Position numbers and translations under genes: made by a program. From IMG/VR virus record IMGVR_UViG_3300035093_000027: a stretch of 64,000 bases of DNA; one strand, 5' to 3'. This document shows positions 25,222-35,296 of this stretch, one piece after another. Source of the stretch: an uncultured virus (IMG/VR IMGVR_UViG_3300035093_000027). Lineage: Duplodnaviria; Heunggongvirae; Uroviricota; Caudoviricetes. Position 1 is the first letter of the stretch. Every line of letters begins with the position of its first letter. The notes below the pieces were generated by a model, which did no database searches, had not been told where the DNA came from, and saw only the letters and a program-made list of their open reading frames with translations.

Positions 25222-26934
25222 AGAAGTACCGGTACATGCTGCGCTACTTCCACGTGTCGACCATGTCGTGGACGGGCGGCCGGTGCTACGCCGAACTCGG
25301 CGGAGCAGCCGACGACTACGTCAAGATCGCGAAGGACTTCGGCACGTCGGTGTCGTGCGTCGAGATCTACGACCACGCGCAACGACGGCCCGGCGAGAAC
25401 CTCTACGCGCCGCAGCACCTGCTGTTTGTCGACGAGTGGGCCGACGACATCCGGCAGCAGATCGCGAACTCCGCTCGGCATCGCGTCGAGCGGGCGCTCG
25501 CGGTGTTCTTGGCCGTCGGAGGTGCAGCGTGAAGGATCTCCTTCTATGTCTGGCTGCCGCGTTCGTCGTGAGCCTGGGCCTGCTCGGCGCGCGTGTGCTC
25601 GGGGAGTGGTGGCACGGCTTCGCGGTGGGCGCAACGCTCTCTCTCGCCGCCACCGGACTACTCGTGCGGGATCGGGGTGCAACGTGAACGGGGCGACGCG
25701 CGAGACCTGCTCGGTGTGCGGGCTGCTGCTGCGCTGCCACGAGGACTCCTGCCCTCGCTGCGCCCGCCAGGCGCTCGCGAAGCGTCTCGAGGCTCACGGC
25801 TTCGAGCACGACGACACCGGTGGCAACTGCACGGCGTACGTGCGCCGGCGCGGCGACGTCGAGATCATGATCACGGTCGAGAGTACCAACGACGCGCCCA
25901 TATCCGATAACCACGACGTGATGGTCGGAGAGTACCGCGGCGATCAGATGACCCACGAGTGGCACGGCAACCTCGGCGACTACCTCATGGTGCTCGACGT
26001 GGTCGAGGCGCGCTTCGGTCGCGCGGAGGGAGCCGTCCAGCGATGAGCTACGTCATCGTGTGGCGCAAGAGGGGCAAGTTCGTCGCGCAGCTCGGCACGC
26101 TGCCGTCGTACACGAACAGCCTGGAGTACGCGCATCGCTTCGACACGCGCGAGGAGGCTGACGTGGTCCGGTGCCCGGAGTCCGAGGTGGTGCTCACCAT
26201 GCAAGAGGCCGAGGTGATCGCAGCCTCGAAGGGAGTCCGGTGATGTCTCGACGCACAGGACAGCTCGGCAACGACGACTACGGCGAGACCGCCGACGAGA
26301 CACGCGAGCGCCCGAGCTCCGCTCTCGATCCCGCGGAGATCTGGGCGAAACTCGTCATCGACAAGATCGCGCTCAAGCGATTGCGGGCGATCCTCGCCAG
26401 CGGCGCGCGCGCGGATGAGCCGCTCGTGTACGAGGTGCGCGCGCCTGCAGGCAGTCGCCACCTGCTGAAGTGGGGATGCATCGAGATCCGCAACGTCGAC
26501 GGGCGCGTGCACGTGTGGCCGCTACCGTTCGCGAGCCGCGTGCTCGAGGAGCCCAAGGCATGAAGATCCGCGACGCCGTCGGCGACGTGATCGCCGAGGT
26601 CGCGACCACGCCAGACGAGGACACATTCCTCATCACATCCACGATGCTCATCGGCATGACTATGGGGTCCGACGCTGCGGTCATCACCTGGATGCGGATC
26701 GTCCGCAAGATCTACGAGGCGGGTCTCGCCAAGGGGCGGGCCTACGATCCGCGCGCCGGGCCGCCGAGCGATCCGATGGGCCTCGTCGGTCCGAGCGACG
26801 CCGAGACGATCGGATACCCGTGGTGTCCGTGGTGTCCGTGGTGCCGCGAGCGCGCGCACTTCGGCGCGTGTCCCGACGTGAGCAACGACGCTCTCGCGCG
26901 GCGGATCCGCAGGGCGAAGCCGGAGGATTCGTGA
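25218..26934 (+). CDS. Run of six coupled small hypothetical ORFs (25218-25532, 25529-25687, 25684-26046, 26043-26243, 26243-26563, 26560-26934)
   Basis: Consecutive stop/start overlaps, some with RBS. Confidence 0.55.
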
Positions 26935-26947
26935 TGAGGGGCCATGT

Positions 26948-28237
26948 ATGATCACGATCGGATCTCTCTTCTCGGGTGCCTGCGACGGCATCGCGCTCGG
27001 CCTCGAGTGGGCCGGGCTCGGGCCGGTGCTTTGGCACGCCGAGCTCGACCCGTGGCGGCGCCGCGTGCTCGCGCGGCACTGGCCCGACGCGATCCTCTAC
27101 GAGGATGTTCGGCAGATCACGGATGCCACTCCCGCGGTTGATCTGCTGTGTGGAGGATTCCCTTGTACCAACGTCAGCATCATGGGCAACAAGGCCGGTC
27201 TTGACGGTGATGAGAGCGGCCTCTGGTCGGAGATGCTCCGTGTCATCCAACAAGTTCAACCATCCATCGTCTTCATCGAAAACGTCTCCAGTCTCATCTC
27301 CGCGAGCGGAGGAGATCTTCGCTGCGTATGCGGCTGGAATCGTGGACGGAGAGGGCTGCGTCCACATCACGAAGAAATCCCCGTCGAACGGAAAGCCGAC
27401 CTATTCGATGCTTGTCGAGGTCGGCATGAGCGAGAGCGGCCTTCCGATCCTTCAAGAGTTGCATCGGGTGTACGGCGGCATCTTGTTCCCCGGACGAGCG
27501 GCGACGTTGACTCACAAGCCGATCCACACGTGGCGTATTTGCTCGGACGAAGCCGTAGCCTTCCTCCAGTCTGTTCGTCCCTACCTGATCATCAAGGCGA
27601 CGCAGGCAGATGTACTGTTGGAGTTCCAGCAGATGCGTCTCGGATCGCACTACTGGACGATGGCGATGCGAGAATCAGCAGAGCGCATGAAGCAGGAGAT
27701 CCATCGTCTGAATCGTCGCGGTCCGCGACAAAAAGAGCCACCGCCGAGCATCCAGAAACGGGAGATTGCGAGGTTTGTGGATGGCCGCTGGGTGGCGCCC
27801 CAAGGTTCGCTGTTTCCCGGACAGCCCTTGGACGAGTTCTCGGGGATCTTTCCGCGTTCGGGTTCGATGCGAGCTGGTGTTGTTTACGAGGTACCGATGT
27901 CGGCTATCCAGTCGAGCGCGAGAGGATCTTCGTTATGGCCTGCGCCCACGAAGGCGGATGCGAGAAGCTCCGGGAGGCACACGACCTCGACGGGCGTTAT
28001 GCACCATGGGACATCGCTCACAGACGCGGTGCGTGCCGTCCTCCGCCAGGACCCCGAGATGGCGCCGCACTGCGAACCTGGTCTGCCGACTACCGTGGTC
28101 ATCAATCCGGAGTTCGTAGAAGCTCTTCTTGGCTTTCCGATCGGGTGGAGCGCGTTGGATCCCTCGGAGACAGTGCCATGCCCGTCCTCGTCCTCGAAGC
28201 CTTCCGACGACTCCGAGACAGGATGATCGCTGCATGA
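26948..28237 (+). CDS. C5 cytosine DNA methyltransferase, alpha-type chain with large insertion
   Basis: SLFSGACDG (I), GGFPC (IV), IENV (VI), RERIF (VIII), SLGDSAMP (X-like); about 170 aa insert after ENV. Confidence 0.85.
   Translation: MITIGSLFSGACDGIALGLEWAGLGPVLWHAELDPWRRRVLARHWPDAILYEDVRQITDATPAVDLLCGGFPCTNVSIMGNKAGLDGDESGLWSEMLRVIQQVQPSIVFIENVSSLISASGGDLRCVCGWNRGRRGLRPHHEEIPVERKADLFDACRGRHERERPSDPSRVASGVRRHLVPRTSGDVDSQADPHVAYLLGRSRSLPPVCSSLPDHQGDAGRCTVGVPADASRIALLDDGDARISRAHEAGDPSSESSRSATKRATAEHPETGDCEVCGWPLGGAPRFAVSRTALGRVLGDLSAFGFDASWCCLRGTDVGYPVERERIFVMACAHEGGCEKLREAHDLDGRYAPWDIAHRRGACRPPPGPRDGAALRTWSADYRGHQSGVRRSSSWLSDRVERVGSLGDSAMPVLVLEAFRRLRDRMIAA
27210..28226 (+). CDS. Overlapping +1-frame ORF: LAGLIDADG endonuclease fused to MTase beta-type chain
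   Basis: AYAAGIVDGEGCV, FLQSVRPYLIIK, then FPRSGSMRAG, WPAP, INPEFVEALLGFPIGWS; start uncertain. Confidence 0.8.
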   Translation: MRAASGRRCSVSSNKFNHPSSSSKTSPVSSPRAEEIFAAYAAGIVDGEGCVHITKKSPSNGKPTYSMLVEVGMSESGLPILQELHRVYGGILFPGRAATLTHKPIHTWRICSDEAVAFLQSVRPYLIIKATQADVLLEFQQMRLGSHYWTMAMRESAERMKQEIHRLNRRGPRQKEPPPSIQKREIARFVDGRWVAPQGSLFPGQPLDEFSGIFPRSGSMRAGVVYEVPMSAIQSSARGSSLWPAPTKADARSSGRHTTSTGVMHHGTSLTDAVRAVLRQDPEMAPHCEPGLPTTVVINPEFVEALLGFPIGWSALDPSETVPCPSSSSKPSDDSETG

Positions 28238-28785
28238 CAACTGCCGCTTGGTACCGTGATGGTCATGTGTGGCTCGCGGGTGACGTGTTCTCCGCGCCCG
28301 CAAAGATCACCGTCGATGACGCCGCTGCGTTGATCGTGAACATCCGGTCTGCGTTACAGGACGCGGCACGGAGCAACCGTGCGGATGGTCGCGAAGCGCT
28401 CGGGTCGATGTATCGCGCATCGATCGCAGAGGCTAGTGAACAACTTCTTCTGATGCGCATCGACGATCTAGTGGTCGACGACCAGCCGTGCCCTGTGCGC
28501 CTCGCGAACTGCAGTCAGAATCGTGGAGCGTTGTACATTGGACTTCTCGTGATGATGTCCGCGAGGGAGATCATGCGGACGAAGAACCTGGGCAGGACGA
28601 CGTGTCGCCAACTCGAACGAGGACTCGCGGAACTCGGTCTGCATCTCGCTCCGCCGGACTTCCACAAGGCTCGACCGGATGCTTGGGGAGGATTCTGGCA
28701 AGAAATAAACCCTGAACTACTCGATCGTCTAGCAGCGATGCGACCCGAGGTTGCGGACACGCTGCGTGAAAGCATGCGCCGATGA
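28234..28785 (+). CDS. Protein with RNA polymerase alpha-subunit CTD-like domain
   Basis: RIDDL..PVRLANC..ALYIGLLV..EIMRTKNLGR..LAELGLHL matches the RpoA CTD pattern. Confidence 0.75.
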   Translation: MTTAAWYRDGHVWLAGDVFSAPAKITVDDAAALIVNIRSALQDAARSNRADGREALGSMYRASIAEASEQLLLMRIDDLVVDDQPCPVRLANCSQNRGALYIGLLVMMSAREIMRTKNLGRTTCRQLERGLAELGLHLAPPDFHKARPDAWGGFWQEINPELLDRLAAMRPEVADTLRESMRR

Positions 28786-29452
28786 GCGCCAAGGGAGAAC
28801 CGATGACCGAAGAAGAGATCCGCGCCGACGAGCGCCGCCACTGGGCCAAGGTCGTGTTCGTCGTGATGCTCGAAGCGAAGCAAAAGGCCCAAACAGATCC
28901 GTCGTTCGACAAGGCGTGGCGCACGCTCGCGGTGCTTGCCTCACGGATGCTCGAGGACGACACACCGGTGGGTGCTGACATGGAGGCGGTCTCGAAGCGC
29001 CTTAGGGCCGCCGGGTTCAAGATCGGAGACGATGCATGAGCGAACCCGTCAAGCAACCTCGCAGTGCGTGGGACGCGATGCCGACGCGGCAGGCCGAGCT
29101 CCGCGCGGCACAGCATCCGGTCGCCGGCGATCGCTGGGAAGAGATGATGTCGTACTGGATCCACGTCGATGAGGTCACCGACGAGCACGTGCTCGTGCGG
29201 TGCTACGTCGGTCCGTGCCAGATGCGACCGGAGGAGTGCAGGCAGGAGCACACTGTGCCGCGCGCGGAGTTTCGCGACTGGATCCTCTCGCGTGGTGTGT
29301 TCTTCGACGGAAACGCGCGCTACGTCGCCATGGCTGGTGGGAGCTACGCCGAGGGTGGGTTCGCAGGCGCGACGATGAAGAAGATCGAGCACTGGACGAC
29401 GACGGACTGGCGCGCAGCACAAGGGATCGAGAAGGAGAAGGACGAACCATGA
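28782..29452 (+). CDS. Two coupled hypothetical ORFs (28782-29039, 29036-29452)
   Basis: ATGA overlaps. Confidence 0.55.
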
Positions 29453-34078: not shown

Positions 34079-35296
34079 ATGGTGCACGCGATGGAGATCT
34101 GTGGGTGCGCCGGCGGCATGGCGCTGGGCTTCCGGCGCGCCGGCCTCGAGTTCGATCTTGTGGTCGACCGCGATGCGGACGCGTGCGCGTCGTACACCCA
34201 CAACCTCGGGCACGCACCGTTACGAATGGATCTCCGCGACCTGTTGCGCATGGCCGAGTCGGGCTGGCACCCCGGGCGAGGCGTGCTCGATCTTCTGGTC
34301 GCGGATCCGCCGTGCCAGCCGTGGTCGAGCGCGGGCAAGCAACAAGGCCTCGGCGACGAGCGCGACTGCCTGCGGCCGCTCATGGCGCTCGTGGCCGTGC
34401 TGCTGCCGCGGGCGTTCCTGCTCGGCAACGTGCCCGGACTTGAGTACGAGAACGCCCAGGCTGCGCTCGCCGAGACCGTCGGTGCTCTCTCGTACCGCGG
34501 CTATTGCATCGACCACTGCGTTCTCGATGCCGCCGACTACGGCGTCCCTCAGCGCCGGATCCGTCCGTTCTGGTTCGCGCATCGCGGAGGGCCATGTATC
34601 ACGTGGCCAACTCCGACGCACGGTCCACCCACGGACCAGCTTGAGATCGGCGGCACCGAGCTCTACCCATGGGTGACCTGCCGCCAAGCGCTGTGCGATC
34701 TTCCGCTGTCCGAGATCGGGCAGGTGCGCGGGCTCAGGCCACCGAAAAAGAACGAGGACGGATCGGGGCATCCGTGGTCAGAGGTCGATGCGCCGGCGCG
34801 GACGATCTGCGCGCGCCGTGACGGAGGCAGCGGGGGCGGCGACGTCCTGAAGGTCATGGAGTGGCCTTGGGATCGACCGGCCACGACCGTGTGCGCCGAG
34901 AACTGGATCCCGCAGCCGGGGCACTGCTTCACTAAGGGCGAGCTCAAGGGGGCCAAGTACGAGGGCAAGACGTATCAGGGCTGGCGCGCCGTCGTGCTGT
35001 CCGAGCGCGCCCGAGCGCGACTGCAGTCGTTCCCGGACATGCTGTGCGGATGCAATGGCGGGTTTCCGACCGCTGAGATCTATCGGTTGGTGGAGGCCGT
35101 TCAGATGGTAGAGCCCATCGATGCATCGGGACGGATCTACCGCGCCGAAGACTGCTGCGAGACGTGCTGGTTGCCACGGCGTCCGTGGCGGTTCATCGGC
35201 CAGACCAAGGGCAGTCGAAACGCACAGATAGGGATGGCCATGCCACCGCTGCTCTCCTCAGTGATCGGACGAAGCGTGAAGGAGTGGTTCGGATGA
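34079..35296 (+). CDS. C5 cytosine DNA methyltransferase with atypical motifs
   Basis: CGCAGG, DPPCQPWS, GNV in place of ENV, YGVPQRRIR, ARLQSFPD, QIGMAMPP. Confidence 0.85.
   Translation: MVHAMEICGCAGGMALGFRRAGLEFDLVVDRDADACASYTHNLGHAPLRMDLRDLLRMAESGWHPGRGVLDLLVADPPCQPWSSAGKQQGLGDERDCLRPLMALVAVLLPRAFLLGNVPGLEYENAQAALAETVGALSYRGYCIDHCVLDAADYGVPQRRIRPFWFAHRGGPCITWPTPTHGPPTDQLEIGGTELYPWVTCRQALCDLPLSEIGQVRGLRPPKKNEDGSGHPWSEVDAPARTICARRDGGSGGGDVLKVMEWPWDRPATTVCAENWIPQPGHCFTKGELKGAKYEGKTYQGWRAVVLSERARARLQSFPDMLCGCNGGFPTAEIYRLVEAVQMVEPIDASGRIYRAEDCCETCWLPRRPWRFIGQTKGSRNAQIGMAMPPLLSSVIGRSVKEWFG

Follow-up and report, generated by a model that had tools for sequence, protein, structure and literature searches.

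A predicted LAGLIDADG endonuclease in the second open frame of a nested phage C5 methyltransferase gene

The window analyzed here is a stretch of 64,000 nucleotides from an uncultured virus of the Caudoviricetes (IMG/VR record IMGVR_UViG_3300035093_000027). It contains a C5 DNA methyltransferase gene that is open in two frames (Table 1). Frame A, here called alpha, encodes the large subunit of the methyltransferase and contains an insert just after the codons of motif VI. The +1 frame, here called beta, reads the insert as a LAGLIDADG homing endonuclease domain. An earlier note, made from the letters of the window alone, had interpreted the feature as an endonuclease that invaded an already overlapping gene pair. 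This reading is essentially correct and is largely supported by the analysis below.

Table 1. Coordinates of the features at the methyltransferase locus (ORF, open reading frame; TRD, target-recognition domain; pLDDT, predicted local distance difference test; aa, amino acids)
Feature	Positions	Strand	Details
Alpha ORF, frame A	26948..28237	+	429 aa; large subunit of the C5 DNA methyltransferase, with the insert read through
Alpha motif I (FSGACDG)	26969..26989	+	Invariant F8, G10, G14 in alignments A1/A8
Alpha motif IV (GFPC, catalytic Cys73)	27155..27166	+	Invariant G70, F71, P72, C73
Alpha motif VI (ENV)	27278..27286	+	Invariant E111, N112; the insert begins a few codons downstream
Alpha motif X (LGDSAMP)	28163..28183	+	G407, P412 in A1/A8; pLDDT 91–92
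Beta ORF, +1 frame	27207..28226	+	Probable start GTG 27207/ATG 27210; TGA 28224–28226
Insert relative to uninterrupted relatives	27293..27832	+	~540 bp, ~180 codons; ends +/- ~15 bp
LAGLIDADG homing endonuclease domain, +1 frame	27324..27728	+	I-CreI/I-MsoI-like by prediction, single motif
LAGLIDADG motif AAYAAGIVDGEGC, +1 frame	27321..27359	+	Alpha reading of the same bases: RCVCGWNRGRRGL
Doubly coding stretch	27834..27940	+	Alpha motifs VII–VIII (VLGDLSAFGFDASW...PVERERIF) over beta EFSGIFPRSGSMRAGVVYEVP
Beta TRD-like region and motif IX	27941..28150	+	Motif IX INPEFVEALLGFPIGW at 28101–28148

The alpha frame and the inserted endonuclease

Frame A matches Pfam DNA_methylase (PF00145) in two stretches (E 5.4e-27), and its residues 1–422 match the DNA methyltransferase family phrog_363 (E 2.8e-51). 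The C5 methyltransferase motifs I, IV, VI, VIII, and X are all found in one catalytic domain. Motif IX and the TRD, which should lie between motifs VIII and X of the same polypeptide, are absent from frame A. A protein search with frame A gave 946 relatives among 8000 scored candidates. One of them, P0002, is also 429 aa long and is 62% identical to frame A over the full length. Others (P0003–P0013) are only 256–269 aa long and lack the ~170 codons present after ENV in the window alpha. An insert at the same place is found in P0029 (403 aa) and P0064 (405 aa). The methyltransferase motifs and the ~170 additional codons had both been described in the earlier note, and the Pfam and PHROG matches together with the 256–269-aa relatives bear them out.

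DNA of the closest uninterrupted relatives (L196 and L197) and of the P0002 locus (L198) was obtained from a metagenome scan. In alignment A1, homology of alpha breaks a few codons after ENV (~27293) and returns at RVLGDL (~27833). When beta of L196 is compared by BLASTP, the similarity returns at residue 209 of the window beta, corresponding to nucleotide 27834, with 78% identity over 116 aa (E 1e-61). The ends of the insert, put earlier at about 27300 and 27800, are thus shifted by the alignment to uninterrupted homologs to about 27293 and 27832. The length of the insert is a multiple of three.

In an AlphaFold2 (AF2) model of alpha, the core (residues 1–125 and 290–350) has pLDDT of 83–96 and the C-terminus 91–92. 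The insert has pLDDT of only 31–56 and is predicted to be disordered in the alpha frame. Residues 355–408, which overlap the TRD and motif IX of beta, also form a low-confidence linker (pLDDT 39–58).

The same insert is well recognizable in the +1 frame. The +1 translation of 27291–27830 matches phrog_5046 (E 8.1e-30, profile positions 9–146 of 161). This family is labeled 'HNH endonuclease', yet it is LAGLIDADG by profile and fold. The endonuclease itself was used as a query against IMG/VR, and the best 80 of 458 relatives were kept. An alignment of 55 rows was built from the window, L198, L004, L006, and 51 of these 80 loci. The profile of this alignment matches the Protein Data Bank sequences of I-MsoI and I-CreI from end to end (E ~1e-10 per monomer, and 1.5e-21 for a tandem construct). 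Pfam LAGLIDADG_1 is matched at E <=0.01 by 39 of the 55 members. Five residues are invariant in the alignment (D19, G20, E21, G22, and K102), and all of them are present in the window.

The AF2 model of the endonuclease domain has a pLDDT of 93.1. Its best Foldseek matches are I-CvuI, I-MsoI, and I-CreI, with template modeling (TM) scores of 0.72–0.76 and a probability of 1.00. The model contains a helix with a terminal acidic residue (motif AAGIVDGEG) and the core alpha-beta-beta-alpha-beta-beta-alpha fold, by which I-CreI-like LAGLIDADG proteins are defined. Judged by profile and modeled fold, the insert in the +1 frame is an I-CreI/I-MsoI-like LAGLIDADG endonuclease. The LAGLIDADG domain had already been noticed in this frame, and it is now corroborated by phrog_5046, the profile comparison with structures, AF2, and Foldseek.

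Two other candidate features around the insert were rejected. A target-site duplication could be considered from the resemblance of SSSSKTS and RWVAPQ. In 6 of 6 loci, however, DNA alignments of the flanks failed to outscore shuffles, and BLASTP of the L196 beta gave no support either, only residues 38–153 being significant. A putative zinc ribbon of alpha, CxCGW...CxxCGW, is composed of RCVCGW and CEVCGW, which are the frame-shifted AAYAAGIVDGEG of the LAGLIDADG motif and FVDGRW of beta.

The beta frame and its coding

The +1 frame is open from stop to stop over 424 codons (26952–28226), and translation from its first GTG at 26976 to 28226 would give 416 aa. The earlier note had described it as stop-free from 26976 to 28226; this is confirmed, and the opening extends upstream to 26952. 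From 5' to 3', beta consists of an N-terminal part, the LAGLIDADG domain, and the TRD/motif IX part. The sequence 27831–28226 in this frame matches the DNA methyltransferase family phrog_1008 (E 2.1e-9). A 39-row profile of beta was compared with the single-ORF methyltransferase P0168, and it matches residues 282–464, where the TRD and motif IX are in frame (hhalign probability 99.3%, E 7.7e-21). The segment WPAPTKAD...SLTDAV of beta is aligned with the TRD of P0168. The phrog_1008 match, the 78% identity to the L196 beta, and the alignment with the TRD-IX of P0168 answer in the affirmative whether the C-terminal part resembles beta-type chains, a check named in the earlier note.

Substitutions between the window and L198 were counted by codon position. 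In the TRD/motif IX region (27941–28150), they are distributed as 3, 4, and 21 at beta codon positions 1, 2, and 3, that is, 21 of 28 are at the third position. Amino-acid identity in this region is 0.96 for beta and 0.70 for alpha. The same bases encode the low-confidence linker and the segment preceding motif X in alpha. In the doubly coding stretch immediately upstream (27834–27940), identity is 0.87 for alpha and 0.83 for beta. Other pairs of loci show changes at the third positions of beta and of alpha, as is predicted under double constraint.

The uninterrupted relatives L196 and L197 contain a nested +1 beta ORF of 163–167 aa inside an alpha of 256–265 aa. Their beta has an ATG with GAGG 5 nt upstream and ends 10–30 nt before the alpha stop. 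Its sequence is MTNDPRSGPSS...SGSMRxG..Y.AP...WPAPV.SDARSS...GTSLTDAVRAVLRQDP...NPEFVEILLSFPRGWS. The nested beta with its ATG and GAGG in these two loci agrees with the earlier proposal that the overlapping pair pre-dates the insertion. In the window, L196, and L197, the beta ORF lies wholly within alpha in another frame, alpha contains motifs I–VIII plus X, and beta contains motif IX. This is the composition of M.EcoHK31I, a two-chain methyltransferase discussed below.

The nested layout, with motif IX in a +1 ORF and alpha ending in motif X, is found by a strict motif test in 47 of 80 alpha-related IMG/VR loci (L001–L080). The others comprise 7 loci in which alpha was not recognized by the pattern and 26 without such a +1 motif. 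The +1 ORFs of the 47 nested loci are 145–438 aa from stop to stop, and loci with 41–47% GC (guanine plus cytosine) are included (L069 and L074). By this test, nested alpha/beta coding appears to be widespread in phage C5 methyltransferases.

Motif IX and the segment preceding motif X are consecutive in the single ORF of P0168. At the window locus, the same bases supply both, each in a different frame, so one ribosome cannot make the two together. This would imply two polypeptides rather than frameshifting. Together, these results indicate that beta is a genuine coding frame. By analogy with M.EcoHK31I, alpha and beta may assemble into the active enzyme.

The start of beta is probably GTG 27207/ATG 27210, which is at the position of the beta ATG of L196 and L197; L198 has only the GTG there. 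Two stops lie directly upstream in L198, and they exclude earlier starts. GTG 27240 is an alternative; in the window as in L198, it is preceded by GGAG at a distance of 7 nt. The window and all five other endonuclease-bearing loci of the alpha/beta type (L198, L004, L006, L084, and L085) have a single +1 ORF that extends from sequence upstream of the endonuclease across this domain into the TRD and motif IX. L004, L006, L084, and L085 keep an ATG of the endonuclease itself 2–5 codons before the LAGLIDADG helix. This ATG is absent from the window (EEIFAAY; ATC TTC) and L198 (EETVAAY). No ATG, GTG, or TTG is present at the endonuclease N-terminus (EEIFAAY) of the window, and no stop is present before the end of beta. 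The loss of the ATG suggests that the endonuclease of the window is most likely made as part of beta, and the product would be a beta-endonuclease chimera. The claim of the earlier note that the endonuclease is joined to beta stands, with one +1 ORF in the window and the five loci. Its position at the N-terminus of beta does not, as the endonuclease is found ~32 codons after the likely start. A second layout is seen in L081–L083, L127, and gp64 of Mycobacterium phage DotProduct, where the endonuclease is a separate ORF from its ATG to its stop, with a new +1 ORF (MEPIATWNPRSQLWET...) behind it.

Several peptide strings that are well known from phage methylases can be converted into one another by a change of frame. 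GGFPCQDIS of alpha is SPARTSA in the +1 frame (27155–27180), and IVENVAALL..VLGDLAxLGYDAEW of alpha is SSWRTSQ..FSETWPRSGMMRNG in the +1 frame (27270–27300 and 27834–27940). EPxVGRVAxGxPxRVD and NPxWVEWLMGFPxGW are also readings of the same bases (28101–28160). All three are seen in the same regions of L002–L079. Two predicted proteins, P0121 and P0141, have alpha motif I in frame with the beta reading (GGFPSRVRTS... and SPARTSQ...). Between its motifs I and IV, P0121 also contains an HNH-like insert (CEECG...HHDDYNKP...CQPCHHEWH) that is in frame. Either genuine changes of frame or errors of assembly could account for these two proteins.

Openness of the alpha frame and explanations of the insert

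An open frame proves little by itself, because the window has a GC content of 66% and long alternative-frame ORFs are common in it. The query of the IMG/VR search was the endonuclease, and its matches are therefore independent of alpha openness. Copies embedded in methyltransferases were found by scanning for motifs IV and VI upstream, which is likewise independent of openness. Nine were found among the best 80 of the 458 endonuclease loci (L081–L086, L089, L104, and L127), L086 and L104 being contigs of L004 and L006. All nine are located directly after ENV, in the +1 frame relative to the methyltransferase, and have 0 stops in the alpha frame and 6–15 stops in the third frame. Free-standing copies of the endonuclease have 2–21 stops in the equivalent frame, and those with GC >=0.57 have 3, 8, 4, 2, 2, and 2. 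The exceptions with 0 stops are L155, which is a junk ORF, and L121. L143 was once a candidate for an embedded copy with stops in alpha, and it was rejected because its motif match is spurious and no methyltransferase is present there.

The codons of the endonuclease were shuffled synonymously, 5000 times per locus, and the shuffles were scored for zero stops in the alpha frame. Zero stops had a probability of 0.022 in the window, 0.004 in L198, 0.009 in L004, 0.014 in L006, 0.0004 in L084, and 0.029 in L085. The absence of alpha stops from the 9 embedded copies and the shuffles speak for the earlier suggestion that alpha was kept readable.

The distribution of the endonuclease was mapped on an alpha tree of 43 rows. 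Inserts were cut by script from the 8 endonuclease-bearing rows, and L085 is on a long branch. The presence of the endonuclease requires 6 changes, and well-supported branches force at least 4 of these. An equally good fit was obtained in 46 of 500 label shuffles. The window and P0002 (L198) are sisters in an otherwise insert-free clade. Across the wider family represented on this tree, the distribution of the endonuclease is patchy. Outside methyltransferases, a copy of the phrog_5046 family (E 1e-29) is followed in L121 (1698–3443) by the C-terminal half of a major head protein, as judged by its match to phrog_1357 (E 2.1e-15, profile positions 163–350). L121 was considered as a second open-frame host and rejected. 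The head-protein frame is open over the endonuclease, but it has a stop at 2181–2183 just upstream and looks like an ordinary interrupted gene.

It is likely that a nested two-subunit C5 methyltransferase was invaded by a LAGLIDADG endonuclease in the beta frame, and that alpha is translated through the stop-free insert without splicing. The host gene would have consisted of an alpha with motifs I–VIII plus X and a beta made from its own +1 start, with a target-recognition segment and motif IX. An I-CreI-like endonuclease gene would have been inserted just past the codons of motif VI. Because this site is constrained in both frames, it would be well conserved at the DNA level. Read in the beta frame, the insert would give the endonuclease; read in the alpha frame, it would be stop-free and translated straight through, and alpha would carry a disordered loop of ~170 residues between motifs VI and VII. 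Neither RNA splicing nor protein splicing would be required. In the window and L198, the endonuclease might be an internal domain of beta, or it might be fused to the C-terminal part of beta by a start at the internal GTG. It can be supposed that methylase and nuclease activities are both retained and that the endonuclease is capable of homing, for which the patchy distribution is an indirect hint. More tentatively, and with somewhat less than even chances, it can be speculated that the endonuclease has no translation signals of its own and is made only inside beta, so that one chain is both a homing nuclease and an essential methylase subunit. Nested coding would then be common in a large phage clade, with motif VI as an unusually stable target and the second frame as a ready route of expression.

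Several observations weigh against the invasion of a nested gene with a translated insert. In the window, the starts at 27207/27210 have a weak Shine-Dalgarno context. The stretch is contained in only one sequencing run, of peat metagenome DNA, and no RNA run is listed. The window endonuclease by itself matches Pfam LAGLIDADG_1 only at E 0.21. The shuffle probabilities of three high-GC loci are 0.34 (L081), 0.23 (L082), and 0.245 (L127), and alpha openness in these loci could be compositional. The endonuclease core of the window is 44% identical to that of L198 at the amino-acid level vs 83–96% for the flanks, and the substitutions in it are 62, 55, and 78 at the three codon positions, a weak excess at the third. 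The endonuclease may accordingly be decaying. Finally, the methylase of Gordonia phage Bibwit is annotated as a two-piece join, which implies that the annotators assumed removal of the insert. Such removal would be expected if the insert were a self-splicing, group I-like intron with an endonuclease ORF, and the open alpha frame were incidental. The endonuclease family is otherwise free-standing or intron-like, as in the head-protein gene of L121. The in-frame LAGLIDADG of Taj_79-type methylases also resembles a group I intron endonuclease, according to a part of a 2023 paper (PMC9957025). An intron is nevertheless quite improbable here. Rfam, which can miss divergent group I introns, gave no intron in window 26500–28700 at E up to 10, nor in 11 endonuclease-bearing loci at E up to 0.1. 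The endonuclease domain occupies 405–480 of the ~540 inserted bases, which leaves little space for a ribozyme core. Moreover, an intron leaves unexplained the zero alpha stops in 9 of 9 copies (shuffle probability down to 0.0004) and an insert length that preserves both frames. An intein does not fit either, since the endonuclease is out of frame with alpha and its ~135–160 codons nearly fill the insert of ~180 codons; Pfam gave no intein or Hint family in either frame. These Rfam and Pfam searches are in line with the earlier statement that neither an intron core nor intein termini were visible.

The divergence of the endonuclease core and its weak third-position excess could also mean that the endonuclease is immobile, being either a DNA-binding or dimerizing domain domesticated by beta or a decaying remnant tolerated in both frames. 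Its ATG is lost in the window and L198, and as the two are sisters, inheritance looks vertical. This explanation is unlikely, although less so than an intron, because all family-invariant residues are intact in the window, the predicted fold has a pLDDT of 93, and the wider distribution is patchy with 6 changes on the tree. The idea that the +1 ORF exists only because GC content is high and frame A is conserved, with alpha alone being made and the LAGLIDADG reading a dead relic, is hardly credible. The window does have 66% GC and many long alternative-frame ORFs, and several beta motifs are merely frame-shifted readings of conserved alpha motifs. However, substitutions pile up on third positions of beta (3/4/21) where alpha is a low-confidence linker, and the nested beta ORF persists at 41–47% GC (L069 and L074). 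Motif IX is found in the +1 frame only, the TRD-IX that single-ORF methyltransferases carry in frame is matched by the beta profile, and the third frame is full of stops across the region.

Related systems and genomic setting

In M.EcoHK31I (Lee, Kam and Shaw 1995), another frame of the alpha gene encodes the whole beta polypeptide, as described in passages of PMC2836561 and PMC3404938; the mention of this enzyme in the earlier note is consistent with these descriptions. Both chains were found by experiment to be needed, and methylation was lost when the beta starts were silently removed, according to a passage of PMC2836561. The window gene shares with M.EcoHK31I a beta nested in alpha in another frame. 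The resemblance considered here is one of architecture. The requirement for two chains is experimental in M.EcoHK31I, whereas it is presumed here. No endonuclease insert is described for M.EcoHK31I, and its TRD is assigned to alpha, whereas the WPxPT/TRD-like segment here is in beta. In the parts of the literature examined, M.EcoHK31I is the only described case of the nested alpha/beta architecture. Another two-subunit C5 methyltransferase, M.AquI, is split in the variable region, and its small subunit has motifs IX and X and is not nested, as summarized in a section of PMC3404938. L080 and L009 resemble this split type. Frame A of these two loci stops soon after motif VIII, and a +1 ORF contains the TRD, IX, and X. 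The +1 ORF of L080 begins with MLKPIAIWNDVRGVWEQP and resembles the ORF following the endonuclease in DotProduct and L081.

The nearest published analog of the insert is the ShiLan domain (PMC11855218, 2025), an HNH endonuclease that lies out of frame in mycobacteriophage methylases. There, the host frame is stop-free, neither an intron nor an intein was found, and the mode of translation was left open by the authors. The window likewise has an endonuclease hidden in another frame of a methylase, a stop-free host frame, a predicted loop in the host protein, and a patchy distribution. Of the HNH type and equipped with zinc fingers, the ShiLan endonuclease has a separate GTG start and TAA stop inside the insert, whereas the endonuclease of the window is LAGLIDADG by prediction, lacks a separate start and stop, and forms one continuous frame with beta. 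'EcoHK31I' has 0 occurrences in PMC11855218, which is silent on nested alpha/beta coding. The homodimeric, single-motif enzymes I-CreI, I-MsoI, and I-CvuI resemble the window endonuclease in fold, full-length profile match, and the metal-binding motif DGEG. They are separate proteins from group I introns, whereas the endonuclease here is predicted to be in frame within a methyltransferase subunit.

Endonucleases in methylases were detected by tblastn in the cultured Gordonia phages Bibwit, Ailee, Keitabear, Sedona, Hans, Sitar, and Lennon, as well as in gp64 of DotProduct. They are of the same family (33–36% identity) and are inserted at the same post-ENV site in the +1 frame, with the methyltransferase frame open. 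They differ in that the endonuclease begins at an ATG and ends at a stop of its own, with a new +1 ORF behind it, and in that motifs IX and X are in the methyltransferase frame. The annotations conflict with one another. In the record of Bibwit (L246, genes 4/5), the methylase is joined from two pieces and the endonuclease gene is nested in it; Keitabear (L248, genes 4/5) has two separate genes, and DotProduct (L247) has one ORF. Even sister Gordonia phages are thus annotated inconsistently.

Other arrangements have been reported in Taj_79-type methylases, where a lone LAGLIDADG is in frame (a passage of PMC9957025), and in inteins, where endonucleases can be out of frame or antisense (parts of a 2025 preprint, 10.1101/2025.01.02.630785, and of a 2026 preprint). 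None of the texts examined connects such endonucleases with nested alpha/beta coding. In a literature search, which covered sources other than subscription journals and supplements, reports were found neither of a nested methyltransferase with a LAGLIDADG in its beta frame nor of the nested LAGLIDADG-in-methylase genes of the Gordonia phages and DotProduct. The feature is less novel than the earlier note assumed, as HNH endonucleases lying out of frame in phage methylases have already been described (PMC11855218), and annotations of Gordonia phages include LAGLIDADG genes nested in methylase genes. It is a combination of two known oddities, nested methyltransferase coding and an out-of-frame endonuclease.

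Such a combination would represent a third way, beside introns and inteins, for a homing endonuclease to occupy an essential coding region without destroying its host. With an insert length divisible by three and no stops left in the host frame, the host protein would just carry a disordered loop. For the question of translation left open in the published HNH case, a second frame that was already translated before the insertion would be a concrete and testable answer. Gene callers report alpha only, so beta subunits and the nucleases embedded in them would be systematically missing from protein databases. If the nested coding is real, the EcoHK31I style could be the usual condition in a large clade of phage C5 methyltransferases, rather than a curiosity of one enzyme from E. 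coli.

DNA of window 26500–28700 gave no match in a search of a phage collection, and all relatives from a scan of genome contigs are <=43% identical. The window encodes phage-type replication genes, namely two helicases, a primase, and a primase/helicase. A second C5 methyltransferase is located at 34079–35296 (phrog_116, E 5.3e-49). It has motifs I–X in a single frame, and in the dual-coding test it is single-frame, with stops in the other two frames. The TGA stop of alpha (28235–28237) overlaps the ATG of the next gene (28234–28236) as ATGA. GC content is 55–61% across the methyltransferase gene. It is 55–63% over 27100–28800, which includes this gene and the next (28234–28785), vs 66–73% immediately upstream. 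This dip fits a separately acquired module.

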